A stretch of 54,170 nt of DNA, the filler included, from Jimgerdemannia flammicorona (Eukaryota): assembly GCA_003990765.1 (NCBI GenBank). It is 2 parts of 2 records of this genome, joined end to end, with 100 filler letters (N's around TTAATTAATTAA, not from the genome) between each part and the next. Parts side by side here need not be neighbours in the genome. Positions count along the whole stretch, not along the records: positions 1 to 27,038 come from RBNJ01000670.1; 1 more part is not named here. One strand, written 5' to 3'. The notes under the pieces were generated by a model. The model searched no databases. It had not been told where the DNA came from and saw nothing but the letters and a program-made list of their open reading frames with translations. Position numbers and translations under genes: made by a program. This document shows, piece after piece, positions 1 through 26,566 of the stretch (position 1 is the stretch's first letter; each line of letters starts with the position of its first letter).

Positions 1-1265
1 CCCCCCCCTATACTTTTATACTTAAATACCACTCTACCACCCACTACCCCAATTCTCCCCCCACTCTGCCCACAGATTTTCTCTACCAAGTAATGCTGCT
101 AACCACTCCACATCCTCCAACCTAACCATCAACCTGTCAGAATGTCCTCCATCAACCCTTCCCATCTCAACAGCCATACCCCTAAATCTAAATATCTCTT
201 TTTCTTAAAAACAAATAATTAGTGACCTACTAGTCCCACTCAAACAACCAATATCCAACCTATAGTAAGCCACTCCTTCTCCACCCCCTTCTCACTAATC
301 TATCTCTCAAATTCTCCCACTGACCCCTCTTACCATCCTCCCTATACACAATACCCAATTAATTTCCAACTACTAGCCAAAAATTGCTAAGAACCTCACA
401 CTCTCCCAGCCAATATTCTGATATCTGCACAAATCCCCCTTTCTGTCCTATATTGTAGTACTCCTCATAGTCAAAACTACCCCCCTCTATAAGATAGTCT
501 GAGCAAAAGTTGAGCATGACATTCCTCCATAGCATGTACTACCAGACCACTTAGTACTTCAGTGGCAGCTATCACTATGCCTCAGTACTCTAGGCCCAGA
601 CTCTATTCCAGTCTCACTCCTCTCCAATTCCAGCCAACTGCCATCTGCTGAGCCATAAATCCTGTCCTAGCTCCCTCTGGCACTCAACCCTATCACTAAT
701 ATCGAAATTAATTAGGGAGATACCCCTCAATAATACTCTGTACCATCTCTATATCACTGGGCCCCAAGGCATCTCTTCTTTATTTTCCCTCCAGCAAATT
801 CCAATATAGTACACCTCATCTGCTATCTCCTACCAGAAACCTTTGTACTACATGTACTCATTATTCTGAAGTTCAACTAAGAATAATAGATCTCCCATAG
901 AGCCTCTTAGTGAGAATCTTATCTTCTAGACCTTCTTCATCAGGAGAACCCAGCTACCCCCTCACAGCTCTATAGCTCTCTTTAGCCACCATACTCTCAG
1001 ACAGTACAGTCTCTTCAGAAAGTCAACCAGCCTAAGGCCCCCTCTAGCCACTGATAAAGACAAGATTTCCTGGCTAATCTGACTCCTTCTCCCAGTCCAG
1101 ATCCACCCCTTGACCAGTTTCAATAGTCTCTTTATCACCCAGGCTGGGAAGTCTAAGTGATAAGCCAAATACTACAACTTTGGTAGCCAGTAGATATTCA
1201 AAATTGAAACATGCTCTGCTAGAGATAAGTGATGTCCTCCTCAACTCTGCAGGGCCTCCCCTCAG
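1..1265 (-). mobile_element. 3' fragment of an L1/Tx1-like LINE ORF2 (same family as 28478-34348), decayed
   Basis: The reverse complement aligns by eye to ~32990-34210. ORF 962-1168 (AYHLDFPAWVIKRLLKLVKGWIW...GGLRLVDF...WWLKRAIEL) matches the translation at ~33085-33285 (AYHLDFLAWVVKRLVKVAKG*IW...WWLKRAVEL). CpG is nearly absent. Confidence 0.85.
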
Positions 1266-1269
1266 TAGT

Positions 1270-3900
1270 GGTGATTTTGTATAATAGTCTCTATATAGTA
1301 TGGTAGTTTTCTTATACAAACAGTCTGGTAATTTAGCAGTTTTCTTCCTAAGTAATGAGTAATCTCTATATAGTATAATGATCTTCAAAAGTATGCAATT
1401 TCTATATGATAATCTCTATATAGTATAAGTGGATTCCTTATGTAGGATGGTCTGGTAATTTAACAGTTTTCTTCTTAAGAAATAGATGATCTTGGCAAAT
1501 TTGACAGATAACTTGATTTGGTAGAGAGACCAGAGAGGTATTTTTATCTGCTCTTCTTCATATTCTTCATCTTCTTCTAAGATAATTCTTCTACTGATAT
1601 TTCTAGATAGTCTTTATATAGATCTCTTCCTTTTCTCTACTGAGTAAACTGTCTTTCTAGTGATGACCTTAACTAGGTATAGGTTCAGATTACTGTAATC
1701 TTTACTATTGTTTTCTTCTTTAAAGTCTTCAACTGAATAGTCTTTAGTCTTCTTATACTGGGTTTCATTCTTTCAATTTGATGATTTAGAGTCTCTTCAG
1801 TCACCTCTTCTATTATTACATTCTGTAGTATAGTGTCCAAACTATCCATAGTAGAAGTATTGAACTTGAGCTCTTCAGATAAGATATCTTCTTTCTTCTT
1901 ATGACTGATAGCTCCTATTGTCTTTAAGTAGATAATCTTAATTTCTTCATAGTGTATACCCTCTGTTATTCTGGAAATAGCTCTGATTTTTATATGTAGT
2001 GAGTTTTTTTTTAATTTGTCCAATCAATCAGTCTAACTTAGAATTAAGATCTTGAATTTTATTTCTTTCTTCTTCTATTTCTTGGCTGGCTTTCCTTCTT
2101 TAGATCTTTCTTATCCTTGGAGGAGTTCTTATAGAGTCTTAATCAAGAGGTATTTCTTATTATTCTTTTTATCATGATCACTCTAGGTGGTTTTTTTAGA
2201 GTGCAAACATACTGGAAAATATTTGGGGGAATTTCATTTATGAAAGTCATTAGATCTATAATGTCTTAGTTAGTGACATTGAGTCTAACTATATATATTC
2301 TTTTTTGAATTCTAGTAAAGAATGCTCTGGGTGATTCTTTGAGATTTATCCTCATTCCTATGATAGATTCTTAGATCTTGTAGCAAGTTTCATTTTCTAT
2401 ATATTTCTCAATAAGCTAATAGTTTGTGGCTTTATATTCTATTTCTCAGGTTACTACTATATAGATGGCTATTCTAAGGTCTAAATATATATCTCTTGCT
2501 ACTTAATTAAAAATTCTCATAGCTGATTCTCTAAGTTGAACCTTATAAATGACAATTTTTCTCTCAACAGAGAGGTTCTTTAGAGCTATAATTCCTTTAA
2601 TTCTATTAAGAAATTTTCTTGAATCTTCTTCTAGGTATTTTGCAAAGATTGATATTGAGGTGGTCATTTTGTCATTATTGTCTTCTGGTTCTGATTCTGA
2701 TTCTGATTCTAGTTCTAATTCTGATTCTAATTCTTCTTTTAAATTATTACTAGAACTTAGGATACTTGGGTATCCTAAGGATGATATTATTTATCTTAAA
2801 TAAGATATAGTAAGTCTGAGTATCTTTAAAGAAGCTACTTTTAGTCCTTTTAGTTCTATGGTTGCTAGTTCTAGTAGTGGTTCAATGAGAGAGACTGGTG
2901 TAACTTCTAAAGGAAATCAGACTTATATAATGAGATCTTCAAGTTCTTATATAAGCTTATTGAAGTTCTTAGTAGAGTTATTTGTATTATCTAGTTGATC
3001 CGATTGAGTCAAGTTTCTTAGTAGTGATAAATCTATTAGTATTATTTGAGAGTTCTATACTATACTGACTTTTGGTTGAGATCTTTCTAATGCTAAGTAA
3101 TTGGTAAGTCTTAAGATAATTACTTCTCTTTTTGTCTAAATACTAGTAATGACTAGTTCTTCTATAATAGTAGAGATTGGTATTATATTAAATATATCCA
3201 GTTTGACTGTGGGTTCTTGTGAGCTGAAAAGTCATATAGATTTTAAAATCTTTCTAGTTGGGTTCTAAATATAATATACTAACTCAATAGAGATAAATTA
3301 TAAGGTTAAGGGTTGATATAGTTTGACTTAAGTCTTTAGTTACTTTACTAATTTCTGGTATCCTTATTGATATTTAGTAGTATAATAGTTAAATCTAGAT
3401 ATAGTGGTGATTTGTATATAGTATAAGTGAGTTTTCTTCTTAGGTAGCAAACAATTTCTATATATATAACAATTATGATAGTCATAATTTAGACAATTTG
3501 ACAGTATTTTTTAAGCTAGTAAATTGGGTAGAGAACTCAGTTTAGCAGATAACTTAGATAATAACTCAAATAACTTGGATAGTAAATAATTCAATAACTT
3601 AGATAGTAGATAATATAGATTCTTTCTAAATCAGTAGACTTCTGGCTTTATCTGATAAGTATATCAAAATATAGTATATTTTTAGATAAAGTTATATTAA
3701 AGACTGGCTTCATTTATATAATATTATGTCAAGAGACTGGCTTCACTACAAAGTTGCATCAGATAGACCAGTTTTATGATTAGATAGTAGACTTTTTAAA
3801 TATGGTGACTTTTTCTTAAGTGGTAGATTTCTCTTTAAATAGTAGACTTTCTTATATCAGAAAGTAGACTAAAGTAGAAAAAGACAAAACTCACAACTTC
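1270..3900 (-). mobile_element. Heavily mutated LTR-retrotransposon relic (gag-like region plus upstream/LTR-like part)
   Basis: Minus-strand translation of ~2270-2650 reads KYLEEDSRKFLNRIKGII...KIVIYKVQLRESA...ESPRAFFTRIQKR, a gag capsid-like pattern with many stops. 2260-3195 aligns to 25030-25990 and ~3260-3890 aligns to ~23090-23890, so it is a dispersed repeat. Confidence 0.65.
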
Positions 3901-4449
3901 TTGGTAGTAGCTTATTAGCAGATTTCTCCTCCTAAATATACTAAATAATTGACTTTTGCTTTAGTTTATATTTCAGACTAAGATTATTCACTCTTATCTC
4001 TGAGATATTTTATATAGATTAGTTGCTATCTGATTACTATATAGCTAACTATAGATTACTATTTATAATATATTTGAGATAACATTCACTATCAGGATAA
4101 TATTTACTATTAGAGTAATATTTACTATTAATAATGTTCTCTTCTTTAGCTATCTGGATTATTTATATAAGTTAATATATGTAGTAGAGCAGTTTTAATT
4201 GCCTAATACTCTAAATATAATATATATATGGCTAAATTATAGTAATAAATTCAGATAGCAGCTTGGTATATTTTTCTGCTAACTTATTATAATATATTTA
4301 TAATTATTTTATAGTTATTGCTTAGTTTTATTATATTCTTATATTTTTACTTATATTACATTCTTATATATTATCTCATTGAGTAGGAGTGTTGAAATTA
4401 TTATATCTTAATAATTTGTAGTTTATATATAACTATATTATCCTTAATT

Positions 4450-4802
4450 ATATTACTGATTCTAATATATAAATACATACTATCTGGAAGAATAAAAAAT
4501 GCTCTTCTTTACTCTTTCTCAGTATCTATTCTATATTTATAATAATAATTAAGATATAAATATTATAACAGAATAGTATAAAGAAGATTTATAAACTTTA
4601 GAAATTATTAAAATAGGAGACAAAGTTCTGATATATTAGAATATAGTAGAAGCTTCATAGTTACAAAAACTAAAGCCCAAGAGAAAAAGACCTTATCTTG
4701 TATAAAATATAAAAAGAATTATCTTTTGGCTATAAAAACTATCAAACATAATTATTTCTACTATTATTAATCAAAACTGACTTAATAAGTATTATAATTA
4801 AT
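4450..4802 (+). mobile_element. Decayed Ty3/Gypsy integrase C-terminal (GPY/F) fragment
   Basis: The plus frame reads IKIGDKVLIY*NIVEAS*LQKLKPKRKRPYLV*NIK...INQN*LNKYYN. This parallels the integrase tail at 48929-49140 (IGQKVLVYCTNIEGNWSAKLEPKWEGLYLI...IHCNHIRLYY). Confidence 0.7.
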
Positions 4803-5399
4803 CAATAAAGTACTGTTTTGGCCCTTAAGATCATATGTAAATACTACTTAGTAAGCTATAGAAAGATAATGATATTCTACTAAGTTGTTAATTATAAAGA
4901 ATTCTTTTGATAGTATTCAAAACATTGTATAGATCCACCTATTATATATCTTATACTTTAGAGCCTACTAGAACTATACTGAGTTTTAAGAGTACTTTAA
5001 GTTAGAATAATTATTAAATAAGAAGAACATAACTAAAGAAGAGTAAATTGCTGAGTACTAGATATCTTACACTCAAATCACTATTACTAAATAGGTTTAC
5101 AAACTACTCAAGAATAATGAGTAAGCTCTGGCTTATTTCTGAGGAGTAGCTCTAGGAGATTTCTAGTAAGTAAAGAGATATTATTGAGAAAATATAATTG
5201 AGTAGATTATATAGGACAAGAATATATAATTGGTCAAAATATAGGAGTTTGAATAAGGTAATTTAGAGATAAAATCACTAAGAAAGTTGTAATAGTTGAT
5301 CTGAATAAGAATATAATTAAAAGATAAATATTTAATCATAGTATCTAAATTTAATTTCTGATATAGTATAGTATTATATAGTTTAGTAGTCACTTGATC

Positions 5400-6600
5400 T
5401 CTCAGTTATATAATTTACATAGTTTTACAAAACTTATATAGCCCCTTTCTCTGCTATCTTACCAATCATATTGATTTGGTAGGCAACCTTCTGAGTCTAC
5501 TTCTCATAATTATTACCCCCTCTACCTTGGGTTAGTTTGCTGTACCTGTTGCAGAATAGTGAGAAGGAGGCAATAGTGATGAATTGCTTCTTTATTGATA
5601 TTAGATTGGTGTCTTCTCCACTTTTTCACAATTTCTGATACCTTTGGCTATATCTGAGGTATACTTATTTTGGTGTGGTGCCTTCTTCCTTTTGTTGTTA
5701 TCAATAAGGTATTATCTTGGTATATTATAGACTATATAGAGAGTCAGCCAACCTTGGACATCAAGTGCCCAGTGTAGGTTATCTGCAGATCCTTGGTACC
5801 TATAGTAGAGCCCTCTGGCTTTGGCAAGCTTCCCAGTGAGCATAGTTCTAGCATAGGTGACTATTTTTTGAGTATTGTTAGGATGAGAGAGGAGATGGCT
5901 GTTATAGATGGGAGAAAGGGTGATAATGGTAAACCAGTGAGGTGCCAGGCTGGGGGCAGTTGTCAGGGCTGGAGCAGGTGCTACTTTGGGGGCCTTTTGA
6001 TTGGTGTAGAGTGGTTAGGTAGTAGGTAACACTCTTGGCTTCTTTTGGTGATTTGGTGGGTTGGGCCCTGGTCATTGGGGGGGGGTCAGGGGGCCCAAAG
6101 CTATCCATTTCAGGCATCTTGACTGTACTCAACTAGAATCAGAAGCTGACATAGCAATGTGATCAAGGCTTATAGGCTTAAGTAGTGGGGTATTGAGGGT
6201 CTCCTTCTGTCTTATATATAAGTCCTCTACTCATCTCATCTAGGAGAACCAGGCCCTACCCACTGTGATATACTTTGATGAGGATTTTTTCTTTATCTGT
6301 CATTCCCTTTGGGGTGGCAGAGACTAGTCTCTATTCAGCTTAAGTATGGCCTTATATATACATTAGAGTTTTGGGCATGTGTTTTCAGTCATAAGTATAT
6401 AGCTAAGTTCTCTCTGATAGTAGAAAGAGCATGATGTACAGAATGAGGTACAGGCTAATATAGGCTCTGCTGTGTCTGGTATGGTTGAGCTGCTGGATAA
6501 TAGTTAGTCTAGATTTATAGGGGGGCAGTGCTTGGTGAGTGACGGGGGAGGGTTTTGGCCTATATAGTCTAGGTTCCCTTCTAATAAAAATCTGTAGGAC
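5400..6600 (-). mobile_element. Probable 5' part of another retroelement (LTR-like segment from 6158 upward, Pro-rich gag-like start at ~6130)
   Basis: CpG-depleted. TGTGATC at 6158 gives a ...GATCACA end on the minus strand, with a TATA-like TATATATAA at ~6213. A stop-riddled Pro-rich frame (MPEMDSFGPPDPPP...) follows. No diagnostic catalytic motif was seen. Confidence 0.35.
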
Positions 6601-6721
6601 ATTGAGTCTATTAAAAAAAAAAAAATATATATATATATACAAAACTTATGATTATATAGATTATATAGATATACAGATCTCTCAACTATATAAAATGACT
6701 CACAAGAAAAGAAGTCTGAAC

Positions 6722-6943
6722 TTAGCTACCATATAGCTAGCAAACTTGTATAAATATTCCTAATATCTAGAGTTAATAAATCTCAGATTAAAATAGTTTA
6801 AGCAAAGAGATAAGAAACTAGTAAGCCTGCAAGTAGATATACTTTAAACTTATATTTGAGGACTCTAAAGAGTCAAAGAAGATCAAGTATTTAAGATAAA
6901 AAAATCTACCATACTTCTGCTAGTATATGTCTACTATATTATA
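6722..6943 (+). mobile_element. Decayed partial or solo LTR related to the LTR at 25994-26452
   Basis: Aligns to 26205-26452 (TATA core agctagcaaacttgtataaata, then aataaa, ending gtctactatattata versus gtccactacattaca), with many C->T and G->A changes. Confidence 0.8.
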
Positions 6944-6964
6944 ATGCTTATAGTTATATAATTA

Positions 6965-7126
6965 ATAATTATCAAACTTAAGAATATATTTATTATATAT
7001 ATTTTTTTTAATTATTATATTAAATTTAATTTAAATATAAATTCTCAATTCTATTCAATTTGAATAAATCCCAATTTGATCTAATTCAATTCATTTTAAT
7101 TCATTTTAATTCATTTGAAAGCACTA
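6965..7126. mobile_element. Partial copy (right end) of the hAT-type MITE family at 22639-22987
   Basis: Ends ...attcatttgaaagcacta (7126), compared with ...attcatttggaagtacta (22987). It shares the ttcaatttga subterminal motifs. Confidence 0.6.
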
Positions 7127-8470
7127 ACGGGTATCTAGCAGATATATATTTAAATGGTTTATAAGAAATTTATAGTAAGCAGAAAGAAACTTAAATATAC
7201 ATTCAATGTTTTCATTGCTTAAATAACACTCACTCAAGTGATCTTCAAGCAATATTCAAAGGGATAGCATTCAAGTGCATGTGAGATAATTGAAAAGACC
7301 CTTAGTATACCGCTACAGGTGCACCTCAGCTTGCACTTAACATCCACTTGAGCAGCATTTCAATTTTGAGACGTGAAGAGTGCGCATCGCATGCTATTAC
7401 CGTCACGTAATGAATAAAATTGAACTACGATATACGTGACCCTTCTATCGAGAGGCTGCAGAAACTTCTTTTCAATGACGCCAGGCTTCAAACAACAGGA
7501 CGAAGCGACCGGCTGCGTTTTATTTATTTTTTTTTATTTTTTTTAAAATATATATATATATTTCACTTAGCATTAAACAACATAACATGGCTGTATCAAT
7601 AAAATTCGAATGATCAAAGCTCCAATCCTAGCATATCGCTAGCATCATTTTATGTCCTTTTCCCTTCCCCATCGCCGATAAAGCTCGCAACAATTCAAGG
7701 GCGCTCAAGTACAGGTGATATTCGCATTGTTGCCAAATTCCCGAGAAACTCAATATACAGGCACCGCGAGCTTGTAATCTCTCGAGTGTTTCGTAAAGGA
7801 AAACGCTACAAGCTCACGTGACGTGGCACTGTCGCTTGTGATAGGAACGATGTTTGACAGTCGGGTATGCAGTACGCTGCATGCAACTCATCTCTTATCG
7901 ATTGTTGCATGTACAATTTGACACCAGTCTTAGTCGTTGATGCACCATGCAGATGAGCTCACTTTCGCGAACAAAATTCGAGGCTGAGAATAAGGTCTCT
8001 TTGCAGTTGGAGGCTGATCCGGCGTAGTGTCTAGAGATTGTTTGTACAAAGTAAGAGCTTTTCCTTCATTAAGTTAGTTATCTGTTTCTGTTTCGTCGAG
8101 GTACGATCGTCGATTTACAGTTCGCTTCAGGTAATAAAGCAAAGAGCAACCATTCACGGTATATTGGATTTCTTTCATACAAATGCAACGCATTGCCATT
8201 ACCGTCCTGATTGGCCTTTTTACTAAACACTCGAACGGACCTCGAAGATGGCCCAGATATAACACGACGCAAATCCAAATTTCGAAACACATATAAATGG
8301 TGTTATATGAAACAAATATATTCAGACGATGGCGATTGCTCTTTCTATGCTTGCGGCGTACGCAAGTATTAGGTATTACAGTACCATTCCATTTTTGCAG
8401 CCAGAAAAACAACGTAAGTAGGCTTTAAATACAATACATCAGGAAGAATGGACACACGGAAGCTTTAAAA

Positions 8471-9415
8471 TTACAAAAGCAGAGAGGCGACCAGGGGAGC
8501 AATGGCGGCAAAGGCGAAGACCGGGGCGAGCGAGGAGCCGGTATTGGGCTTCGCGGTGGACGAGGTCGAGGTCGAGGTCGAGTTGGCGGAGACGGAGGCC
8601 GCAGCGACCGAGACCGAGGAGGCAGGGATGGTGCCCTTCAGGGAGGCAGCCGTTGGGGCAGAAGACGCGGCAGTGCTGGTCGGGGGATTAGTACCGGAAG
8701 AGGTGACGGCGGCGGCGGCGGGGGTGCTCGCAGCGGAGAAACTTATGGTACCGTTGCCACTGTTTACGTGGAAGGGGTGAGAGTACGAGCTGTAGGTTCC
8801 AAAATAACAGTGGGGTATGATTGATAAGCGACGGGGTTTGATCTGATGACGATGAAGAACACAAAGAGCGTTGACCAGTGTCCGAATTAGATATCTCGTG
8901 CGGCGCAATATACTTACGTGACGTTACCATCAGAGATCATGACGGACCAGGAGTCCGAGGCCGGAACGGTGGTGGGGCAAGTCCAAGTGTAACTGAGGGC
9001 GTTGCCGGAGACGTTCGTAGCGATGATCCTGTAGACGGTTTGCGTCTGAGGGGTGGGCCCGTTCAGAAGTTTGATGGAGATATCTTTGTCAGACCCATCG
9101 GTCCAGGTAATCTTGTAGGTCTTGCCTGTTCGTAGTAAAGTCGATAGGAGGGATTCGTCCAATTAGTACATGGTCGTCGGTCGCAATACATGCATCAATT
9201 GAGATTTGTAACTTACCAGCTTGCCAAGTGGTGTTCTCTGAATAAAATAAAATAAAGTAAAAAGATCGTGGAAATTTTTAGCATCTGTAATGACAGAATA
9301 TCTCTCAAGTTGGTAAATCTTGTCTTTACTTACCGACGGGGTTTGTGATGAAGTAATTTTGAGCAGTAGCGAAGGTGACGAACGCAAGCAGAGCGACGAT
9401 GATGGAGGCCTTCAT
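8471..9415 (-). CDS. Secreted Ser/Thr-rich GPI-anchored protein with Kre9/Knh1-like N-terminal Ig-like domain, 209 aa
   Basis: Exons 9415-9334, 9237-9217 (21 nt), 9125-8918 and 8789-8471; all introns GT-AG and in phase (630 nt). The protein has a signal peptide MKASIIVALLAFVTFATA, then ITNPVENTTWQAGKTYKITW...YTWTCP...SYSHPFHV, an S/T/A-rich stalk, and a hydrophobic GPI-type tail (NTGSSLAPVFAFAAIAPLVASLLL). Confidence 0.9.
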
Positions 9416-11658
9416 TTTCAGTATAGGGTAGAGTGCGATGAGGAGTGTGGAGGAGGAGGAGGAGAGCAGAGATGAGAGTTGAAGGTGAAGAAAGAGAGAA
9501 GTGGGGAACGAGGCCGAAGAAAAAGCATTTCCAATCGGCTGGGATGAAATGCGGCAATGTTCCACGTTCCAAACCTTACCATATCTGGCAAGCTGTGCGA
9601 GACAAGGGACTCCCCGACTGGTTCCAATTAATAAATTTCGTGATCGCAAAGTTGCTACCGAACACCGTTCGGACCTGTCTACTTCCTCCAGTTTTTGACA
9701 TTGCATGTGCCATTTATCCCCGACGACCGACCACCCCCTTGAGCCATATCGGTTCTACTATCATGGGAGAACTCCGTTTATGATAACAAAATCTGTCATG
9801 GACGACCCCGAAGTCCGTAATCATAGAAGTGAGCCAATGAGAACGCCCCGCTCATCTGGAATGGACGGACGATCCGGAGCAGTCTAATATACTCATGCAA
9901 GGATCACGTCCCGGAAAGCATATGCCGTTAGCTTGATCTGACAGGTCGGAAATTTCGAGATTCCCCTTATGGTTGCTCGTGATACCTGAGTCGGGATGAG
10001 CCATGTACTTGGTTGGTGGCTCGCGTAACAACCATTAAACTTCATTCTCACGACAAGATACGTAACCCGCATGCCCTCCTCACTTTCCGCCCTATCCGAT
10101 TGCCTCGTGCGGTTTAATTATTACTTTCAAAAATAAATAAATAAAAAAGAATATATAGAAATCGTTGCTCACACAATAGCATGTTTGGCACGTCTCTTTT
10201 TCCACCGTGCGATGCCCACTAGGTTGGGCTTTTGGTTTTCTGACATTGGGAATCCCGTGGTGGTTTTAGTCGCACTCCACTGATCTGGGTCCGCCTAAAA
10301 CTCAGATTAGTCTACCAAAAATGACAAGTGTGATGTTAAGGAGACTGCCGCTCTTCCCCGCTCTCAACTTTTGGCTAGGCATGCCTTCACCTCACCCTCA
10401 GCATTTGCCATGGACGGCATCAGGTTAGTATGACCAGGGACTGCTGGCTGACTTCCCCGTGTCCAGAAAGGGAGATGCTTTGCCGGTCATGGAAGTTTCG
10501 GCAAACCATCTCTGTATGTGTGTAGCGAGGGGTTTGGAACCGCCCAGCGCTTCTATTTTTTGATCTAGTAAAGCACATTGGACATACCCTGCACCTCCTT
10601 CGTTAAATACTCTTTATAGATCAAGCTAGCTTCATCTGTTGTTATAAAACAAATGCCATTCTTTTGAGCCAGAGAAATGGTGAAAGAGAACGGCGCGAAG
10701 TAAACCACAGGTTTTGACCTCGTTGGAGATAAAGTTTTTTTTTTTTTTTTTTTTTTAAGGGGGGGAGGGGTTCTCATACTGCCTTTTCTCTCATGTAACA
10801 TAATCGGATAAAAACTAATCTCACGCAACTAATACTGCACGCGCGTGCGTCTACTTTTCCCACCTTTGCTCGCATGCATTGGCCTTGCGTTACCGGCTCG
10901 ATTTCTTGCTTTTCCATTCACCATTAAAGAGTGGATCACGTGCGATAGACAGTAAATAAACAGTACAGTACACAGCAGACGGATGAGAGATAATGGGAGA
11001 AAGATATTCGACTATGGATCCTTGTGCATAAAAGTCACAAATCTAAGGAAGAAATGAAATCACCGCCAATTATTGTTGGGCGAGGTTCGAGCCAACCCAA
11101 CAACTTCATACTCAACATACCGCATCCATCCAATGAGACGACCTGTGTCGATTCACTCCCTCTTATATCTTGTATTCCAACTCTTGCCTTTGCATGACAC
11201 CCACGTAGTTAGCAGGACCTTGTGCGGCGAGAGAGAAAATGGAAAGAACCCCCTAGATTCAAACATAATAGCCACTTGGACCGCGTGCAGAAATTCACCG
11301 TTATCAAGCGCACCGGTGCTGGATGATATCAAAATACAAGGAAAATGAAAGAAGGACCGAAAGGAGACCGAATGACCGGAAAAAAAAAAATAAAAATAAA
11401 ATAAAAATAAAAATACCTCTGCATACAACGATATGGTAGCGTATGTATTTGCTGGTACCGTACAAAATCCGTGGACGCTTGGATCCCAACATCGTTTGAG
11501 AATTTTATGGTACATCTGGGATCAGCTCTTCGCGGCGGTTTCCTAAGTGGTCTGAAACTGAAAAGGTTGGTGTCACAAGGTATAAATAAGGGTGTCCGAG
11601 TAATCATATTCAATACCATATGGCGTATATATGTACAGATGAAATAATGTAATTAATA

Positions 11659-12026
11659 CTAACGTTTGTCATCATCGATGGTTTCATGGCTAATTTCGGA
11701 CGTTCTGCTATCTGCCGTAACCTTGAACACTTTCTTTATTTTATTTGCAATCCCGGATGAAACATTTTTCGGGCCTCTAATATGTTGCTTTAGGGTCCGA
11801 CAGGTTTGGTCATTACGCAGGAGGCAAATCACGTCCTTCTCGTACGTAGATCCAGGCTCTGTTGCTTGGGGAGTAGGCTCGGATAGAGGCTTGGATAGAG
11901 GTGGGGTTGGCACGACTGACAATGTAGAGGTGGATGGACGCCGCTGTACCTGCAACGAAGTATGCTTGGTGAACAGAAAGAGCCGTTAGGGAGAGGATTT
12001 TCACAGTGCATTACAGTCCCTGGCAT
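11659..12026 (-). CDS. Small hypothetical protein, 100 aa (MPGTVQRRPSTSTLS...DDDKR)
   Basis: Exon 12026-12015 (ATG CCA GGG ACT), a 65-nt intron (GTAATG...CTAAC...TTGCAG), and exon 11949-11659 in phase 0. No recognisable domain. Confidence 0.55.
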
Positions 12027-13210
12027 TCTGCTTAAGGAGATCTTAAGTACTGCGAAGCTTCCCAATAATATTTAAGTAGTTATTTAAACCAGTCTATTAT
12101 TTTAAGTGATACTTTATAGCAACAGATACTTAATATCAGAGGGATTCCATATGGATTCATTTCTAATGATCATTACTTAAAAATCAAGCTTTTTAAAACT
12201 TGACCAACAATATGAATTTTCGACACTCACGCTGATCACGTGACACATCAGTCACATATATAAGCCCACAGCGATTACTATTTGTAGCAAATAAAGTCAA
12301 CCCAAGGACACGTAAAAAGGTTGGGTCCGAGACTCAAGAATCCGAGAAACTGCGGCAAACCAGAATGCAGAATATCAGAACGCACTTCCTCAACGCAGAA
12401 ATTACGTATGACCAGGCCTCCTAGATGCAAGTCGACGAGCTCCCTTATTACGATCCAAATATATGTGAGATTGTTGAAAGGATCACTATTATATATCCAT
12501 CTCAACTTGCACTCCACTTGAGATTCCCTTCAATTTTTGGCTAGGAATCGTGAAGTATCTCAAAACGAAAAGGAACAAGGCAAGATGAAAAGGAATACTG
12601 CGAGGCAAGACGAAAAGGAACAATGCGAGGCAAGCCTTACAAAATGATAGCAAGAAAAAAAGGAGCAACACAAGGCGGAGGATAAGGAGCAATGCTCGGC
12701 AATAGCCGTTAGCCATCATCCACAAATTCTTGTATACGGTTATTTTTTTTATTTTTTTTTATTTTTTTTTTTGGTGTTGAGGCTGCTGTGGATAACACCT
12801 TGTGATAATCCAAACTCAAACATTGGGACGCCTTCTCACTTCTTGCGTGGAGTTATGGTTCCAAAATCAACAACACGCAGCGTATGAAGCCCCAAACCCT
12901 TATACCCAACAACACGAGAACATTGATAAAGAGAATCATTGCCTTTTAATCGCATACATGGCATGCGACACCATTATTGATCAGATTATAAGAAATCCCC
13001 CAAAAAATACTAGTTGTAATCAACAAAACAAAAACATTGCAATTGTAATAAGGAAAAGCTAAACGAAACTGTACAATGCGACGCGGACCGACCGGAAGTC
13101 CCCGCACGCAACCATCCACCACGCCCACGCTCGCGATCACTTGGAGTCAGTATACAGCACGAAGCCCGCCTCCTCGCCCGCTACTGCCGCCAACCTTCCC
13201 ACCTCCACGC

Positions 13211-16200
13211 CTATTCTGAAGCCGAGGGGACCTTCTCCAGTTTTTCCTGCCACTGCCTCGCCATGCCCGTGATGCGCTCGAGTTCGGGCGTCGACAGCGG
13301 CAGCGGACTCAGTAGACCCGACATCGGCGGTGCGGAAGCGGCGGAGCCGTACGCGGGGGTGGAGAAATCGGGGAGCCCGCCGGGGACGCCTGCGAACATC
13401 ATACCATCAAAGAGCGAACTGTCTGAGAAGAAGTTGTAGCCGGAGATGTCCTGCCCAAAGTAATCGTCCATCTCGACCGAGTAAGGTCCAGTGGTGCCTA
13501 GGGTTGTGGACAAGGGCGTTTTGGCCGAGTCTGGGAAGCCAAGTAGCGTGTTGGGGGAGAGTAGTGGCACTGAATCGGCTGATGATGTGGAGGAACTGAG
13601 AGCCATGTATGCGAGTCTCTGTGATTGTACTTCCGTCGCCACCTGTCCCTGTCCCTGCCCCGCCCCACCGAGCGCCGCCACGGTGCCATGTCCCGGGAAG
13701 ACCGCCTTCGAGAACCCACGCATTTGTTGGTGATACTGCATTGATGCCATCTGCCACAGGGCGACGATGCCCGAATCGGAACGCACGGGAACAGGCACCT
13801 TAGCATGCTGCCACAATGCGCCTACGCCCGAGTCATCGCCCATGACGGGGTAGGTCATGTTAGAGGGCAGGGCGCTATCGGCGTTAATGGCGGTCGAAGG
13901 TTCGGGAGGAGGGGTGCTCGTGGCGCCAGTGGGGTTCGTGTTGTCGTTGGCGCTGATGGCGTACAGATGGCGTTTACCGTGAAGTGCGAAGAGATCACGG
14001 ATCATGAAGTAGAGTTTGTCGGACATGGCCCAGTAGGGCTTCATTTCCTGTGGTGGGATGAGTTGTTCGGTTGGTTGTAAATACAGTTAGTGTATAAACA
14101 CGCGACAAAGTTCAAAAAAAAATAAAAATAAAAATAAAAATAAAAATAAAAAAAAGCGGGGAGAAAGGCAACGATCATTAGTGAAACCGGATGACATACC
14201 TGCAAAACTCTATGATGCGTCCCCAGCTTTATCTTCGCTTTTTTCGCCAGCTCCTGGTCACTTGAAAACGCATTCCCCACATGCACGGTCGCAACGGTAT
14301 ACGTAGCATACGCAATGAACGGCGCCGTCGTGACCAACCTTGTCCCCACCAACCGCTCCAGTATCTCCGTGACGGCGTCGGCGGCCTTCAGACACTTCTC
14401 CACAGACTGGTCTAGATACTGCTTGAACCATGGCATAGCATGGTCTGGCTCGCTGTGTCTGATGGCGAGATTCGGTCTATGCAGCAGCACGGCGACTGTA
14501 TTATGCAATATATGCATAAGGAAGAATGTGCCGCCCGCGGGGATCGGAATCATCCGCTCTCCGTTCTCGCGCGTGTAACTCAGCGAAGGCGGGAGCGAAG
14601 CGGCCCACCCTAAGAGAGCTTGATCGAGGAGGGCGAATTCCGAGTTCGGGTGCGAAGGGGGGGGGGCGGATTTCGGCTTAGCGCGGTTTACGTAGTGCGT
14701 CACTTGGCCCAGGATCGCGACCATACGCAGGAGGTACGCATAGACCCCTATCGTCGGCCGAAGCGAGACGGCCTGAGGCGAGGACGGATCCGTCGTGGGA
14801 GGTGGCGTTCCGTTCAGCATCTCGGTCAACACAGAGTGGTCTAGCTGCCAGTCAGTATCGTCGCTGGGAAGGAGGACGTCACAGTCGCGCTCGTCCAGAG
14901 CTTGGGGACGGCCTGTACTGGAGCTGGAAAATCTGTAGAATTCAAATGCGGAAAATCGATTAGGATGTGTCCCCTCCCCGAAATGCCGCAATCCTCACAA
15001 CATCACCCTCACCACTTCCATATGGGTCACGACTCACTTGTCGATCATGAACGTGCACCAGAACACTCTCCGCCTTGTCTCCTGTTCAATACAGTCCATT
15101 CTGGAGAATGAGTCGGTCCCGTCCCTGTACATGGCATCCTCCTTGTTCAGGCCCAGCTCCTGCGCCATCCTGGATACATGCCAAGAGCCATGTCAGCAAC
15201 AGGTTGATTTAGAACCGGCTGCCTGACACGGCTGCCTGACAAAACCATGACCGTGCAACTCTGAGACATGCTCACCTGACAGCCATGCCTGACGCGGATC
15301 CGAACAGGCAATGTAGAAACGTCCGTGTATGGTATGAGAAATGAGAGGTAAAATACGAAAAATGAGATATCACCGCGTTCACTGCTCGGCTTTCATTCCC
15401 ACTCTCTAAACACCCCTCCCGTCTTCACCATCCCCCCCTCCTTTATAAATCCTCTCCCCCAAACAAAAGAATAACACGACAAAAGAAAGAACCCAAAAAA
15501 AAAAAAGCACACACCAGAATACATCCACGCTCTTGGCCCCCTTGCGCACCCATATTCGTGCATGCTCAGCAGTATCATAGCTTGCACACTAGCGAGTATT
15601 GGAATATCGAATATGCGGTTGATCAGCACGCGCGCCTTGGTCGCGTACTTCTCTCCAGCCGCCCACGGGGGGTTCTCGATCACCGCTGGGTGATCCGAGA
15701 ATCTGAACGATTTTTTTTTTTTTTTGTAAGGGGGGAAGAGTTTAGTATTGAGTGGACCATCAACAGTTCATTTGGAATTTGGTCTCCCCACAGTTCAACC
15801 CCGGATATAACATACCTCGCGGCCACGGCCATCACCGACAGCAACAGCACTTTGGACACCTTTCCCGCTCTAACCTTTTCCCGGAAAGTAGCCTGGTGTA
15901 TGATTGGAAACTGATTGAAAAGAAAATCAAAGTACGTGTCGACGAGATGATCGATAATCTCCCTAGGCGGCAGTTCGTCATCGACGGGGGTGAGCGGTAC
16001 CATGGGCCCGTGCAACATGAGGGGCTTCCCCATAACGACCGCGGAGGAGGTGACGTTGTACTCTGACGCGTTGGACGATCTCGATGAGCTGGAGAGCGCC
16101 GGGGAAGATATGGTGGCGACGGTGGGTGACACGACTGGGACGACAACGTTGTCGTGAATAGTATTGGGCCGCAGGCCCGACTGGCCGAGATTGATAATGC

Positions 16201-16929
16201 TGGAGGAGGGACCAAAGTAACTGAAGGGGTCAGACGTGTCGTTGGACGGCGGCGGGCGATCGTCCAGATCCATGCCGAGGAAGTCTGATGGTCGTGGGTA
16301 ATGCGGTTGCGCGGAGAGGAGGCGCGAGGCGGTCGAACGCGAGGAGGACGGCGATGGGCGCTGATCGTCGTGCTCTTCGTCGTCATCATTGTCATCGAGG
16401 GCGCGGGCTGGCCGCTTAACACTGGTGTTGCTGGAGGTGTTGTTGGAGGAGCGGTGCGACCGGGGTGAGGAGTCGGGCGTGTCGGAGTCATCGTCATCCT
16501 GATCATCGTCGTCGTCGTCGAGGGAGAGACCTTGGGAACGCTGAAGCATCCGCTCCATCTTGTCCAAGCGCTTCTCCAACATCTCGATGTAGCCCTGGCG
16601 CGGGCCGCGCTTCTTGTTGCTTGGGAGGTAGGTGCAGACCAAGTGGTGGCGGACGCAGTTGGCGCAGGAGGGCTTGCCGCCATCGCATTTGATCTGAAGG
16701 AGTTTATTTTATTTTTATTTAGACTCAAAGAATCTGAAGGAGGGGTACATGTTCTATCTGCAGATTCCGAGGTGGAGGTTCAAGGTACCTTCTTCTTTCT
16801 GCAGATGTCGCATGCCTGGGTCAGGCGCTTCCGCTTCGGATTTGCGGGGTCTGTGGGGCTTTCTGGGTTGCCTGGCAAAGAAGAGGTCTTAGGGTCGATT
16901 GTTGTGTCGATGTGGTGTTGTCCGTTCAT
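13211..16929 (-). CDS. Zn(II)2Cys6 transcription factor with fungal-specific TF (fungal_trans/MHR) domain, ~973 aa
   Basis: Exons 16929-16789, 16693-15816, 15702-15515, 15288-15276 (13 nt), 15169-15038, 14932-14200 and 14047-13211, all GT-AG and in phase (2922 nt). The binuclear cluster [28 protein letters not shown] spans intron 1. MHR motifs: LVDTYF...FPIIHQATF, AWMYSGMAVRMAQELGLN, ETRRRVFWCTFMID, GRP. An additional upstream exon cannot be excluded. Confidence 0.95.
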
Positions 16930-19892
16930 GATAGTCTAGGGATGGCAGCCAGGCAAGTTTTGAAGAAACGAACGGGTCCTGTTGCTTATAACCATGCCAC
17001 CAGTGACTGCCATCCCTATAAGGGGCGTCCAATAGAAGCCTCGGCATGACGTATCTTCACCACCATCGGGTTGTACGTCATCCATCTGACTCATTATGCC
17101 AGTATGCCCCGTGTCCGTGAGGGCAAATCCGGACTAAACCCTCCCTCAACTCCCCCAGTACGCGTCAAGTCTTTAGATAGCCTCGGAGACAACCCGGGAT
17201 TCCGCAGAGGCCACGTGCCCTAACCCCGTCCTTCAATCCACCGAGAAAGCGCCGACAATGTACGCTATCCCGGTTCTCCCACCACCACGAAAGGAGATTC
17301 AGCGACCCACCCAACACTAGTCCATCCTACGTCTCCTACGATTAATAATCAATCCGTTATGTAAGTTCGATCATATGGACGCTGATAGGCCTTGAGGCGC
17401 AGTGGCGCAGTAGCTCCCGTCCGCAATTCATAGAATTGTGATGGCGCGTGCTGGCGTGGGGATGTGAAGGATGTGGAGAGGGTTGTATCTCTGAATACGA
17501 CACGATATAATGACTCCGATGCTTCGAAAGCTCCATAGGTCGATTGAGTCGGTTTGATGTATCGGATGCGAGTCGGCACACGCGAGCTCGAGTGCTCGCC
17601 AATCACACCTACTAAAATGTTATCAGATTAACATAATCTGATTATCCAAAACAATTGATCAGTGACTCAACGAGTTTGTCAGCTCCCGGTCTTTCTTATT
17701 GCATCATTTCAACTTATTGCAGTAGAGGATTGGATTGACATGTAATTATATTCAGCCATAGGGTTTCACGTGATTTATAATTTCCAGTATTAGTAATCCT
17801 TCCCCTCAGTTATGAATAATAACCTTTTTGGCAAAGGGCACTGCTGGCCCAAAATAAGAACGTGACCTTGGTCGTGGTGACCCGTGAAAACCGTTGCTCT
17901 TTTCGACAGGCATTCGGCATTATTGTCCGTCCTTCAATTGTCGCCCATACAACGTCAACAGTTAGACAAAAACCGAAAACTTTGGCGGCCATCGGCGGGA
18001 AGAAAGCCGACCACTATTGCAGACATGTTGTCAATGGGAAACACAACGAGAGATTGCAACTGCGGCGGCCACCAATGGACAAGCCTCTTTAAGACAAAAT
18101 GAAAGCACAAATCCAAGTTTGTGGTTGGAAGCGATAGAATAGTGTTGAGTGATGGCGATGCTATGACCTTTCTTCCCTCAACCCTCAAAAAAAAAATTTA
18201 CATTATAATTATCTTCACTTGTCTACCATAAATTGCCTCAAGCATCTTCGTCTTAGCATCGGCGCCTTTTCTTTCCTAACCTTGGCCGCACCGTTCACGA
18301 GTAGGTTCGATAGATGTTGGGGAAAAGATTATTCATGAACAGTACCCGAGAGTACTTCTACAGTGGAGAAATCAAAGCTGAAGGTACAATGCCTTGCTTT
18401 CCTCACCCGTCGCAGTCGAAGAATTACTCGTCGTTATGGTTGGGTCCCGGCGGGTTTATGTTCGCAGAGTCACCTAAAGGAAGCCGTCAACAAGAGCGCC
18501 GCGCCGGACGTTCAATGGACAAAAATTATCTGAGACGGTTGATAGGGGTAGAGGTTACGGTGAAAGAACTGGATCGGTGAAAGAACTGGATCTACGGCAG
18601 TGTTGAGAATAGTGTCGAGCGGCGACGACGTCAGTTCGATGTGAAAGCTCAACGTCCTCGCCTAAGAGAATGGGAGACTTTCGTCTGCAGTCGCTGCAAC
18701 TGGAGACATTCCAGAGCTTTCGCCTCAACTGAAGTTTCATGATGACGTCAGGGAAGCCGGACCCGTTGGACATCGAGCAAGAAATTCCGGTTCCAATATG
18801 CGCTACTACAATTTTGGCGAACATCCGGACGTTGTCTCATGCTCGCACCAACGTAGATAATGGAGTTCATTTGTATTCAGGACTCATGATTACGGAGTAG
18901 AACTTAGAAAATAAGCGCTGAATAATGCCATTGGACTTGTATATGTAGCCTGCAAAATATGTTGCACCGATCATTTATTCATGGTGTCGATCGGGTTCCA
19001 ATGTCAGGAAGCCTGACTTCCATCGAGCCCTCACTATTCCAATCAACCGCGCAACGAGCGATCGAGCTTTCCCACGCTCACTTGTGATGTAATCCAAGAT
19101 TCTGAGCAATGTCCGAGGAGCCAGTAGGTAGCCAGGGACCTGAGTTTCCTGATATATTAATTGTTGATTGTGGTCTTCAGCCAGTATCTGAAGAAAATCA
19201 GGCGATTACACGCCCCCCCGCGCCAACGTATCACGAAGTGGTATGGGAACACACGCTGGATGTTCACAATATCCTTACCGCTCTCGCTTCCAGGCCGTTT
19301 TACCGGCTCACTGCACCCAGAAACCATTTCTCCTCCGCGACGAACGGGCAATGGCTGTACTGAGCAAACACTCTGCTGTTAACACGTGCGGGGAATTTTA
19401 CGGAATGGTGTAGATTACTCCATCTTTATCCGGTGAGACTGCGAGAGGACTCTTCTCCTTTCTCCGGACTATTTTGACCTGGATAAAAAAAAACTGTGTA
19501 TATATATATGGTACGTGCGCAAACTACTGCATATGATTAGCGCACGCGCCAAGACCCGGTCATATTATCAAATTGTGAATCAATACTCATGTAGAAAACA
19601 ATAGCGCTCATTTCTGCTTCTAATGAAATAAAGTGGTTTACTATTAGTGCCATCTTCCAATTGTTCACATGGTATGTGAAGCACTCCTTCTGAGATTCTT
19701 CACAACAGAAACCTTACCCAAAATACTAGCATGTATACAATATGGGACATTTTCCCTGGAACGTGAGGGTTCAGCTTCAACCTTGTATAAATATGTTACT
19801 ATTTTATCAAACCTTCCTGCTAAAGGAAAAATAGGCTCCATATGGCAGAGAAGCGCGATATACGGATCTAGACACCCCCCTAATTCTCCGTC

Positions 19893-19941
<49 letters not shown>

Positions 19942-20454
19942 GATAAGAGAGCTTTGTATGTGCGCACAACTTGGCTATCCATTCGCGATTGATAACTGGC
20001 ACTGTATTGACCCCACCAATTGCTGCGATCGTGCTCCAGCGATATATGCAGAATTGTTTTGTTGGGACCGTGTAATTTCCACCTTACCAAGAAAGGTCGG
20101 GGCAATTTCAATTCTGCGGACAGTTTTTTATTTCTTTTTTTATTAAAAAAAAAATAAAATAAAATGCAGGTGCCAAATAAAGAGGTCATCGAACGTGTAT
20201 GTGGTTGGGAAACCACTATTTTTTGCGCAATAATAAGTTAAGAGTGCGAGTATGGTGAACCCATATCGGCTGAGTGTTTTTCAAATAATTTACCGAGGGT
20301 CGGCTACCGAATTGATATGTTTGTCATACTGCAACTATTATAGGTAATTACATCGAGCTATTTTTGTCTAATTTAATAAACAAGAATGTTTCGCCGGAAA
20401 TGCTAAAGGAGCGACAGAATTAATTTACATATTCCGAGTTGATCGATCACTTAG

Positions 20455-20461
20455 TATAAAA
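20455..20461 (+). promoter_or_regulatory. Putative TATA box of the small secreted peptide gene
   Basis: TATAAAA about 80 nt upstream of the ATG at 20539, followed by an A/C-rich leader. Confidence 0.45.
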
Positions 20462-20538
20462 GGACATGGAAAAACGAATCATTCCAACATCATTCTAGTA
20501 AAAACAAGCAACACAACCCGCACCCTTCCACGCAAAAA

Positions 20539-20860
20539 ATGAAGTTCACCAGCGTTATCTTCGCCATCCTCGCCCTGGCCGCCACCAGCGTCATCGCCTC
20601 CCCCGTCGGTGCCACCGACGAGTCACGCAGTCTGGGAAAGCGTAATAAACCCTCCTCCTTCCTCCTCTCCATCTCCTAACCCTCGCCGAAAACGATCCCT
20701 CCCTACTTACACTAACGGAATTCCCCTTCCAGGCGATAACTGCCAGCTGAACTGCTACAACCAATACAGTTGCTTTAGAACCGACGCTAATTGCATGGCT
20801 GAATACGATACCTGCATGGACGATTGCCCGGAAGATTGCGGACACCCCAGCACCTGTTAA
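20539..20860 (+). CDS. Small secreted cysteine-rich prepro-peptide, 76 aa (signal + pro + KR + 41-aa 8-Cys peptide)
   Basis: Exon 20539-20641, intron GTAATA...ACTAAC...TTCCAG, exon 20733-20860 (231 nt). Product: MKFTSVIFAILALAATSVIASPVGATDESRSLGKR|DNCQLNCYNQYSCFRTDANCMAEYDTCMDDCPEDCGHPSTC. Confidence 0.88.
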
Positions 20861-21341
20861 GATGGATGTTTAGTACGTCACAGTGAGGCGATCCCTTTTA
20901 AATACACTATTCAGTCGTAAACTGTATCGTAATAAATATATATATAACCAGTTTTTTTTTTTTTTTTGTGAGAAATTTTTATAATGTCGTCTTGGAAGAT
21001 AAATCATGCTATCCCATATGTGGATGTGTGAAGGCGAAATGACGCAAGCATTGAAGCATCCTGCTCTCCGGGTCGATACGCGGCGCCATCACTTGAAAAT
21101 TACATGGGAGATGGGAGACGTTGTGTCACTAAAAGATTCAAAGAGCATTGCGCGCTCCCTATCTGTGTGCGACGCGTCTGGTTCGAATGATCAGCGGTGG
21201 CTTTTCGACCTCAGTCAATGCCGGACCCCCGCCCGAAATAGGGTTCTTCCACGTTCATATTTCATATTGACTCGTTACCGGCCCATTTCCTTCAACCCCT
21301 TCCCCCCCCCCCCTCCCACACACACATACACACACGCTACC

Positions 21342-22034
21342 ATGCGTCGACTTATCCTCGTCCTCGTGTTAGCCTTCGCGGCCCTCACTGCCGCTCAGAC
21401 CACCGATGGCGAAATCACTACTTCATCGTCCACCACTACTACACCGTCCTCCTCATTTACAACAACCGCCACCCCGTCCTCTTCCGCTTTCCCGGTCCCG
21501 GTTGCAACGACCGCTGACCCTTCCTCCGCTGCCGCTGTCACTGCATCGCCTACCAGCGCCACCGGTCCCTACGCGACCTTCACTTCCTGCTGCGCCAACT
21601 ACCTCAACACTCTCGAGCTCTGCTCCAACATCCTCGCTCCTGACAACACGGAGTCCCAAATTTATCGTTGCGCTTGCGCCCAGGGTCAGTCCTTCTATGA
21701 CGACTGGAACCGCTGTTACAGTTGCGTCTACAGCGGCGGAGGGGCCCGCTCAGTCGTGGCCGCCAGCTCGGTCGTGGCCGCCAGCTCGCTCACGAACATC
21801 ATGGAGACATGCCAAGCCATTCTAGGGAACGCGACGACGGCAGTCTTCCCCCCCCTCGGTACGAATTACCCCATTGAGTCTGTCCAGAAAGTAACGCCCA
21901 CAGGGAGTCTGCCCGTCACATCGTGGCCTGGGAGAGTGAGCAGTGCGGGGAGTCTGGCCGTTTCGGTTGGGAGAATGGTCGGAGGGGTTTTGGTGGCAGT
22001 GACGACGGTGATGGTCCTGTGTTGGGTTGGTTGA
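21342..22034 (+). CDS. Secreted, probably GPI-anchored Ser/Thr-rich protein with an 8-Cys extracellular domain, 230 aa
   Basis: An ATG in good context (ctaccATG) starts the signal peptide MRRLILVLVLAFAALTAA. A T/S-rich stretch follows, then the Cys pattern CC..C..CAC..CYSC..C and a C-terminal SSAG + hydrophobic tail. Single exon. Confidence 0.88.
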   Translation: MRRLILVLVLAFAALTAAQTTDGEITTSSSTTTTPSSSFTTTATPSSSAFPVPVATTADPSSAAAVTASPTSATGPYATFTSCCANYLNTLELCSNILAPDNTESQIYRCACAQGQSFYDDWNRCYSCVYSGGGARSVVAASSVVAASSLTNIMETCQAILGNATTAVFPPLGTNYPIESVQKVTPTGSLPVTSWPGRVSSAGSLAVSVGRMVGGVLVAVTTVMVLCWVG

Positions 22035-22987: not shown

Positions 22988-23059
22988 TACTTAATTTAGA
23001 TAAATATATAAATTATTATATATACAAATTTATAGTCTATAGCTGAATTTATTATATCT

Positions 23060-26452: not shown

Positions 26453-26566
26453 ACTTGGTGTCCATTGGCTGGTGATTCAAGATGAATCCCTCACTTTCAA
26501 GCTGAACAATGAACAACTGCCACTACCTGAACAACCATACAAACTGAGCCCCAATATCCAGACAAG

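Follow-up and report, generated by a model that had tools for sequence, protein, structure and literature searches.

Repeat-induced point mutation (RIP), as known from Pezizomycotina, is a premeiotic process that acts on duplicated DNA, needs RID and converts cytosines predominantly at CpA. A Dim2-dependent C-to-T mutator that acts in mitosis has been described for repeats of Zymoseptoria (PMC8016269), and in Rhizophagus the transposable elements (TEs) carry CpG methylation, together with a DNMT1-related enzyme in the genome (PMC8647823). A DIM-2 homologue has been reported for Phycomyces, with RID being listed in reviews as restricted to Ascomycota (PMC13297926, PMC7862722). A kingdom-wide k-mer screen found RIP-like signatures in Ascomycota only, the inclusion of Jimgerdemannia in that screen not being established (PMC12543289), and according to Dallaire et al. 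(PMC8647823), who refer to Venice et al. 2020, none have been detected in Mucoromycotina. We here analyzed a stretch of 54,170 nt ('the window') from Jimgerdemannia flammicorona, an early-diverging root-associated fungus of the Endogonales having a genome of 240 Mb with more than 77% repeats (PMC7928374, PMC10386755), with regard to a decayed long terminal repeat (LTR) at positions 6722–6943, denoted LTR copy A, for which a first-pass annotation had proposed RIP-like CpA-to-TpA hypermutation. PMC7928374 names RIP only within a general list of defences. Our literature search gave no report of a RIP-like signature, 5-methylcytosine or a DNA methyltransferase (DNMT) inventory for Endogonales; such an inventory was found neither in the main texts searched nor in nine supplements of PMC10538959.

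LTR copy A is old and lies among dead retroelements. The data show the direction of cytosine loss, its restriction to transposons and its context ranking. The loss in TEs was graded, with CpG being lost first and near-completely and other cytosines thereafter, and with genes, introns and unique non-coding DNA being spared (Table 1). The observed/expected (o/e) ratio of CpG was 0.02–0.37 over all TE classes and 0.89–1.04 in genic DNA. In the younger TE classes decay was of the CpG-to-TpG/CpA kind only. This depletion of CpG in TEs with a reciprocal excess of CpA/TpG, which is the hallmark of CpG methylation and deamination, was absent from genes, introns and unique non-coding DNA, and the neighbouring genes had retained both their CpG and their CpA as first annotated (CpG o/e 1.04 and CA/TG 1.04 over 7200–22600). 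The end products were AT-rich, TpA-rich and stop-riddled relics in three blocks, delimited from the CpG positions and here called CpG-free, with a GC content of 0.31 (block A), 0.24 (block B) and 0.10 (block C). The left edge of block B was sharp, with 15 CpGs in 22003–22337 directly before it. Block C, homologous in part to a palindromic element at 22.6–23.0 kb, had o/e ratios (counts in brackets) of 0.50 for CA/TG (21), 0.21 for CC/GG (1) and 1.68 for CT/AG (70), with TA at 1.13. Intermediate values were seen in the tandem arrays (GC 0.29, CpG o/e 0.17, CA/TG 0.97) and in the LINE (long interspersed nuclear element) fragment at 1–1265 (GC 0.44, CpG o/e 0.02, CA/TG 0.99).

The RIP indices TpA/ApT and (CpA+TpG)/(ApC+GpT), which the first-pass annotation had suggested for a comparison of repeats with unique DNA, were 1.18 and 1.00 in block A (795/671 and 513/514, over 704–6542), 1.08 and 1.00 in block B and 1.14 and 0.46 in block C, as compared with 0.82 and 1.26 in unique non-coding DNA. 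RIP-positive sequence has a TpA/ApT of at least 0.89, a (CpA+TpG)/(ApC+GpT) of at most 1.03 and a composite index above 0. By these thresholds, all three AT-rich blocks score as RIP-positive.

The direction of change was first evident in LTR copy A itself. The strings quoted in the first-pass annotation were found in place, with copy A reading gtagatatactttaaactta, agtttaa and gtctactatattata where the younger LTR copy B reads gcagatacacttcgaactca, agttcaa and gtccactacattaca. A pairwise alignment of the two copies (220 columns, 77.7% identity) held 34 transitions and 15 transversions, the transitions when read from B to A being GC>AT in 26 cases and AT>GC in 8. Per site, C>T changes from B to A were found at 6/10 CpG, 12/23 CpA, 3/11 CpC and 5/37 CpT, giving an odds ratio (OR) of 7.0 for CpA versus CpT (p=0.0025), and CA had become TA at 10/23 dinucleotides in the forward direction versus 0/13 in reverse. 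To polarise these changes we looked for an outgroup, using the conserved start of the LTR to scan contigs from metagenomes. Two loci resulted, of which one (L002) was a chance match and not an LTR relative. The other (L001; 835 nt usable) was a less-decayed relative with intact CpGs and nearly the same primer-binding-site/gag start. Downstream of copy B, at 26453–27038, we similarly found a primer-binding-site-like sequence followed by a gag start, ended by the contig edge; this downstream part was near-identical to L001, and CpG o/e over 26205–27038 was 0.37. With L001 as outgroup, 87 three-way columns were usable. On the branch leading to copy A, 8 of the 11 changes were C>T/G>A (CpG 4/4, CpA 2/7, CpC 1/2, CpT 1/11), as compared with 1 of 5 on the copy B branch, and at two sites the series CG (L001), CA (copy B), TA (copy A) could be read directly. 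The gypsy LTR near 47 kb was also considered as an outgroup and was dropped, having only about 75 nt in common with the two copies. As a separate observation, the start of copy A (6719–6756) was spanned by a run X2 RNA contig, with a depth of 236.6 at position 6741, that then continued into younger-LTR-like sequence, which points to transcription of further members of this LTR family.

A larger set of changes was provided by two copies of a gag-like relic, here called relic X, situated in blocks A and B. Their alignment (965 columns, 78.4% identity) contained 187 transitions and only 21 transversions, for a transversion distance of 2.2%, with the transitions being split 83 versus 104 between the copies. 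CpA and TpA stood opposite each other at 31/71 and 34/73 of the CpA sites, and the CA-versus-TG pattern that is expected from independent decay of ancestral CpG occurred only 3 times. In an exhaustive protein search using the relic frame with stops written as the residue X, three homologues were found (P0007–P0009), all on metagenome contigs. Among residues differing from P0008 in copies 1 and 2, respectively, 38 and 37 could be reached from its codons by C>T/G>A alone and 3 and 5 by T>C/A>G alone, whereas 28 and 20 required other changes. When the residues were permuted in 2000 trials, the first class averaged 16.3 for copy 1 and 14.2 for copy 2 and never exceeded 29 and 25, respectively. Six of the seven in-frame stops stood opposite R, W or Q of P0008 and were reachable by C>T/G>A alone, agreeing with the earlier reading of a gag stop as TGG>TAG. 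When single-transition differences between the copies were polarised by P0008, 14 were GC>AT and 1 was AT>GC; synonymous differences (20), those in codons with more than one difference (32) and those without a match (5) were left out. This 14:1 bias, together with the codon directions relative to P0008, shows that both copies decayed independently and are in no C/T equilibrium. The directional C:G>T:A transitions that RIP produces were hence found in relic X (187 transitions to 21 transversions, 14:1 when polarised) and on the LTR copy A branch (8/11), to be read against a unique-DNA baseline of 16 transitions to 4 transversions. In the Pfam searches (six frames, stops as the residue X) of 1261–7000, 22600–26200 and 34900–41300, being the parts so scanned, no family was found, and a HECT pseudogene with CAA>TAA and CAG>TAG stops, as annotated previously, was accordingly not located there. 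A transition-blind (purine/pyrimidine) self-comparison of the window for unmutated parents of the relics gave no new pairs.

Turning to sequence context, differing cytosine sites in the relic X pair amounted to 72/106 for CpA, 30/42 for CpC and 84/198 for CpT. CpA thereby exceeded CpT (OR 2.9, p=2e-5), as did CpC (p=7e-4), with CpA and CpC not differing significantly; as raw differences, CpA/TpA pairs numbered 65 versus about 63 for CpT/TpT. Two sets of mid-age repeats could be added. The LINE-like element, the 3' part of which pairs with 1–1265, gave 257 transitions and 94 transversions (transversion distance 7.6%) with changes at 70/205 CpA, 48/211 CpC and 40/198 CpT, and the tandem core of 29 copies gave 12/87 CpA, 8/58 CpC and 4/145 CpT cells, these cells not being independent events, with a CG/CA/TG/TA series at two sites. 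CpA was lost more often than CpT in all four data sets (relic X, LTR and LINE pairs, and tandem core; pooled OR 2.73, and 1.84 for CpC versus CpT). The palindromic element (22.6–23.0 kb versus 45.9–46.1 kb) was tried as an additional polarised set and aligned too poorly.

We also simulated decay starting from the window's own gypsy, LINE or mid-age TEs, and compared the outcome with the relic dinucleotide profile as root-mean-square deviation (rmsd), using a GC endpoint of 0.25 for gypsy and LINE. From these two, a model with CpA and CpC equal and at 2.5 times the rate of CpT reached an rmsd of 0.08–0.09, as compared with 0.24 for context-independent decay and 0.29–0.30 for a fivefold CpA-specific preference. 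From mid-age TEs the corresponding values were 0.17, 0.26 and 0.17. The context ranking was consequently CpG far above CpA and CpC, these two being equal, and then CpT, with CpA and CpC lost roughly 2.5 times as readily as CpT, a modest preference that the alignments, the codons polarised by protein and the simulation bear out alike. The dominance of CpA that characterizes RIP was not seen, CpC being hit as often as CpA and the fivefold CpA preference giving the worst fit from gypsy and LINE, and neither was a DIM-2-type pattern with C>T at CpA and CpG spared, since CpG was lost first and CpC equalled CpA. What was stated in the first-pass annotation thus stands as regards a real, directional and TE-confined C>T change that includes non-CpG cytosines, but not as regards its being CpA-specific, and the label 'RIP-like CpA-to-TpA' overstates the specificity. 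Its statement that CpG methylation would be insufficient by itself was borne out by the loss of non-CpG cytosines in both the relic X pair and the relic blocks.

The most likely cause, although no more than about as likely as not, would be a chronic, transposon-targeted cytosine methylation with subsequent deamination that extends beyond CpG, as the pattern of loss suggests, with precedents in the Rhizophagus, Phycomyces and Zymoseptoria cases cited above. Dense CpG maintenance methylation on transposons, followed by deamination, would let CpG be lost first, whereupon lower-level non-CpG methylation, or an otherwise heightened deamination, in heterochromatic AT-rich DNA would remove the remaining cytosines. 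The process would run chronically instead of as a premeiotic burst triggered by homology. Its product is similar to that of RIP without being canonical RIP, and the option of non-CpG methylation and deamination that had also been given in the first-pass annotation fits better than RIP proper.

Several points weigh against this explanation, and some of them favour a simpler one. In the latter, no special non-CpG process would exist; CpG methylation would remove CpG, and an ordinary AT-biased, transition-rich mutation would slowly make old TEs AT-rich, since in TE islands that do not recombine neither selection nor GC-biased gene conversion would counteract it, with the context ranking being the general mutation spectrum of the genome. 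We consider this, the next in likelihood, possible although rather unlikely. Comparing the window with same-species RNA contigs, which in both runs were spliced and left the relics uncovered, over unique, mostly exonic DNA gave 20 usable differences, after two clusters had been dropped (one paralogue and one indel misalignment), and these were 16 transitions to 4 transversions, which is not significantly below 187 to 21. The high transition/transversion ratio may therefore be partly genome-wide, and since the baseline in unique DNA was already 16:4, we rejected this ratio alone as proof of hypermutation. The ranking of CpA above CpT was furthermore found in the LINE pair and the tandem core as well, thus not being peculiar to the relics, and the TE classes formed a continuum of GC content (0.51, 0.46, 0.44, 0.33, 0.31, 0.24, 0.10). 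GC could also fall without any targeting if GC-biased gene conversion were lacking in TE islands that do not recombine. Nor was there any CpA excess in the raw counts of the 14 polarised changes in relic X, which were CC in 5, CT in 5 and CA in 4 cases, and we know of no methyltransferase with a context preference in which the CpC rate equals that of CpA. All data come from two contigs, making up 54 kb of a 240 Mb genome.

Ordinary decay does not, however, readily account for introns and unique non-coding DNA, which at GC 0.42–0.43 had CA/TG of 1.10–1.13 and CT/AG of 0.82–0.95 and lacked the skew of the relics, even though the window contains no unique DNA matched to the relics in GC. In the relic X pair the transversion distance was below that of the LINE pair (2.2% versus 7.6%), and yet the loss of C per site was far greater. 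By arithmetic from the counts, C>T changes per transversion were about 5–9 times more numerous in relic X, a contrast that depends on 21 transversions and that may be affected by saturation of the LINE copies or by some selection during their divergence. A GC content of 0.10 over 926 nt would also be extreme for a mutational equilibrium.

A true analogue of RIP, evolved or retained outside Dikarya, appears improbable to us. This would be an enzymatic C>T mutator that is triggered by homology, linked to the sexual cycle and relaxed in its context preference, and that struck certain repeat families, relic X among them. It would agree with the positive standard indices in all three blocks, the sharp block edges, the stops derived from R, W and Q codons, and the independent and about equal mutation of both X copies (83 versus 104 transitions), and episodic hits could account for the 5–9 times more C>T per transversion seen in relic X as against the LINE pair. 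Against it, there was no CpA dominance, with CpC equalling CpA and CpT being just about 2.5-fold lower, and runs tests on the X pair revealed no patchiness of derived alleles by strand or copy. The relics are repeated, but so are the LINE, the gypsy element and the tandem arrays of the window, and these display CpG loss only, keeping GC at 0.29–0.51 and CpA/TpG o/e at 0.97–1.34. These spared repeats, together with a genome of 240 Mb and more than 77% repeats (PMC7928374, PMC10386755), argue against an efficient RIP, and the literature cited above lists RID as Ascomycota-only (PMC13297926), finds RIP signatures in Ascomycota only by k-mer screening (PMC12543289) and reports their absence from Mucoromycotina as far as detected (PMC8647823, after Venice et al. 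2020). That Endogonales would possess a repeat-directed, all-context C-to-T mutator (CpG > CpA = CpC > CpT), being an analogue of RIP that arose or persisted without RID outside Dikarya and driving selected TE families to GC 0.10–0.30 with no effect on genes, we find equally doubtful.

Editing of retroelement cDNA by an AID/APOBEC-like cytidine deaminase during retrotransposition, whereby copies would be born hypermutated, is very unlikely: the affected elements are indeed retroelements, each copy of relic X has its own, independent C>T/G>A changes and the strand asymmetry was significant (p=7e-4), but with coding-strand C loss at 0.62 and G loss at 0.43 this asymmetry runs the wrong way for minus-strand editing, which should give coding-strand G>A far above C>T, both strands were heavily affected, the 5' context rates were flat (A 0.66, C 0.51, G 0.45, T 0.50) with no TpC or WRC-type preference, and CpG was lost also in tandem arrays, which are not retroelements.

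The window is made of two joined contigs, 1–27038 and 27139–54170, and the linker at 27039–27138 (N44, TTAATTAATTAA, N44) is an artificial join with stops in all six frames. The first contig carries a spliced and expressed Zn2Cys6 transcription factor gene, with the Pfam domains Zn_clus and Fungal_trans and with GT..AG introns in RNA contigs. A 317-aa piece of this protein was 96% identical to a J. flammicorona protein, 63% to one from Endogone sp. and 31–35% to Mucorales proteins, and a P-loop gene on the second contig was 100% identical to a J. flammicorona protein. These identities place the host as J. flammicorona (Endogonales, Mucoromycotina), so the supposition of a host within Mucoromycota held true; protein-atlas taxa for the transcription factor ('commonest Ascomycota') were uninformative for this placement and were superseded by the direct identities. 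Within this gene the RNA contigs of run X1 lacked 13 nt and had 6 nt inserted relative to the window (positions 13112 and 13854), in addition to point differences, and run X1 is probably from another isolate; the X2 contig of the gene was near-identical to the window, with 4 other letters and 1 gap. The P-loop gene (41453–43384, minus strand) belongs to a large family across Glomeromycotina, Mortierellomycotina and Endogonales, with many relatives having the Crinkler N-terminal domain PF20147. Its paralogues in J. flammicorona are 48–66% identical, and the CpGs were nonetheless kept in the copy of the window (o/e 0.89).

Table 1. Features and sequence classes of the window, with GC content and observed/expected dinucleotide ratios.
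Feature	Position	Strand	GC	CpG o/e	CA/TG	CT/AG	TA	Remarks
CpG-free block A	1–7127	.	0.31					LINE fragment 1–1265 and AT-rich retroelement relics; only 3 CpGs
Relic part of block A	704–6542		0.31	0.01	0.82	1.56	1.16	
Gag-like relic X, copy 1	2219–3197	-	0.28					Homologues P0007–P0009
Decayed LTR copy A	6722–6943	+	0.27					Right edge of block A; aligned to copy B and L001
Gene-bearing unique DNA (control)	7128–22337	.		1.04				Includes Zn2Cys6 transcription factor gene 13211–16708 (-); spliced RNA
CpG-free block B (relic)	22338–26045	.	0.24	0.00	0.83	1.58	1.07	0 CpG in 3708 nt; CC/GG o/e 0.68
Gag-like relic X, copy 2	24997–25989	-	0.26					Frameshifted; homologues P0007–P0009
Younger LTR copy B	26205–26452	+	0.40					Aligned to copy A and L001
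Tandem array, 163-nt period	27139–28480	+						Second array 34300–34860; basis for consensus-polarised counts
LINE-like element, RVT_1	28500–34250	+	0.51	0.11	1.34		0.69	CpG loss only
Crinkler-family-like P-loop gene region (control)	41345–45385	-		0.89				No CpG depletion
Extreme AT-rich CpG-free stretch (block C)	45386–46311	.	0.10	0.00	0.50	1.68	1.13	926 nt; same skew, stronger
LTR of gypsy element	46840–47085	-						Only first ~75 nt common with copies A and B
Ty3/gypsy-like element	47000–54170	-	0.46	0.34	1.22		0.67	Protease, dUTPase, reverse transcriptase, RNase H, integrase; partial CpG loss only
Genic DNA			0.46–0.48	0.89–1.04	1.04–1.11	0.89–1.01	0.71–0.78	
Unique non-coding DNA			0.42	0.90	1.13	0.95	0.78	
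Transcription factor introns			0.43	0.77	1.10	0.82	0.63	
LINE, mid-age TEs, gypsy, young LTR element			0.33–0.51	0.10–0.37	1.19–1.34	1.18–1.28	0.67–0.92	

Some further observations concern the other repeats. The plus strand of the LINE-like element (28001–36000) had a very strong purine skew, with a GC skew of +0.28 to +0.51 that was mirrored at -0.58 in the inverted fragment 1–1000. The 163-nt array flanks this element on both sides, as would be the case after insertion of the LINE into a satellite, or if arrays formed part of its ends. Between the protease and reverse transcriptase of the Ty3/gypsy-like element lies a dUTPase domain (51951–52346, minus strand; Pfam E=1.5e-20), so that in a genome with C>T decay of its transposons, one of these itself encodes an enzyme of uracil control. 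The palindromic element is AT-rich, CpG-free and resembles a miniature inverted-repeat transposable element; it was found at three places (6997–7176, 22639–22987 and 45908–46111) and was not depleted of CpA at 22.3–23.0 kb (CA/TG 1.18).

It follows from the blocks described here that RIP screens based on indices or k-mers can score positive in an Endogonales genome, with the spectrum behind the positive indices differing from that of RIP. The window displays TE-restricted cytosine decay beyond CpG in a lineage for which the literature searched describes no cytosine-methylation machinery. If driven by methylation, this would be a Mucoromycotina case of non-CpG mutational silencing, and if triggered by homology, the origin of RIP-type defences would move outside Dikarya. 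Annotation of the 240 Mb, repeat-dominated Jimgerdemannia genomes is also affected, as neither repeat finders nor domain searches pick up relics of this kind.

Compared with the described systems, the relics share with RIP of Pezizomycotina, which involves RID and DIM-2 with heterochromatin factors, a TE-confined C:G>T:A change, sharp AT- and TpA-rich blocks, stops derived from Q, W and R codons, and positive indices. Unlike in that system, there was no CpA dominance, CpG was the first and most completely converted target and many repeats were spared; furthermore, the genome is huge and repeat-rich and the lineage is one without reported RID (PMC13297926). With the TE decay by CpG methylation of DNMT1/DNMT5 type, as in Rhizophagus irregularis and many Basidiomycota, the window has in common that CpG depletion and TpG/CpA excess are found only in TEs and that genes are unaffected. 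It differs therefrom in that non-CpG cytosines were also removed, down to GC 0.10–0.31 and with a context ranking, which is not predicted by strict CpG maintenance methylation. The Dim2 mutator of Zymoseptoria tritici resembles what we find here as a chronic, methylation-linked non-CpG C>T process in TEs that gives a RIP-like composition without meiosis, but there CpA accounts for more than 98% of the C>T changes, with CpG being left intact (PMC8016269), whereas here CpG was lost first and CpC as often as CpA.

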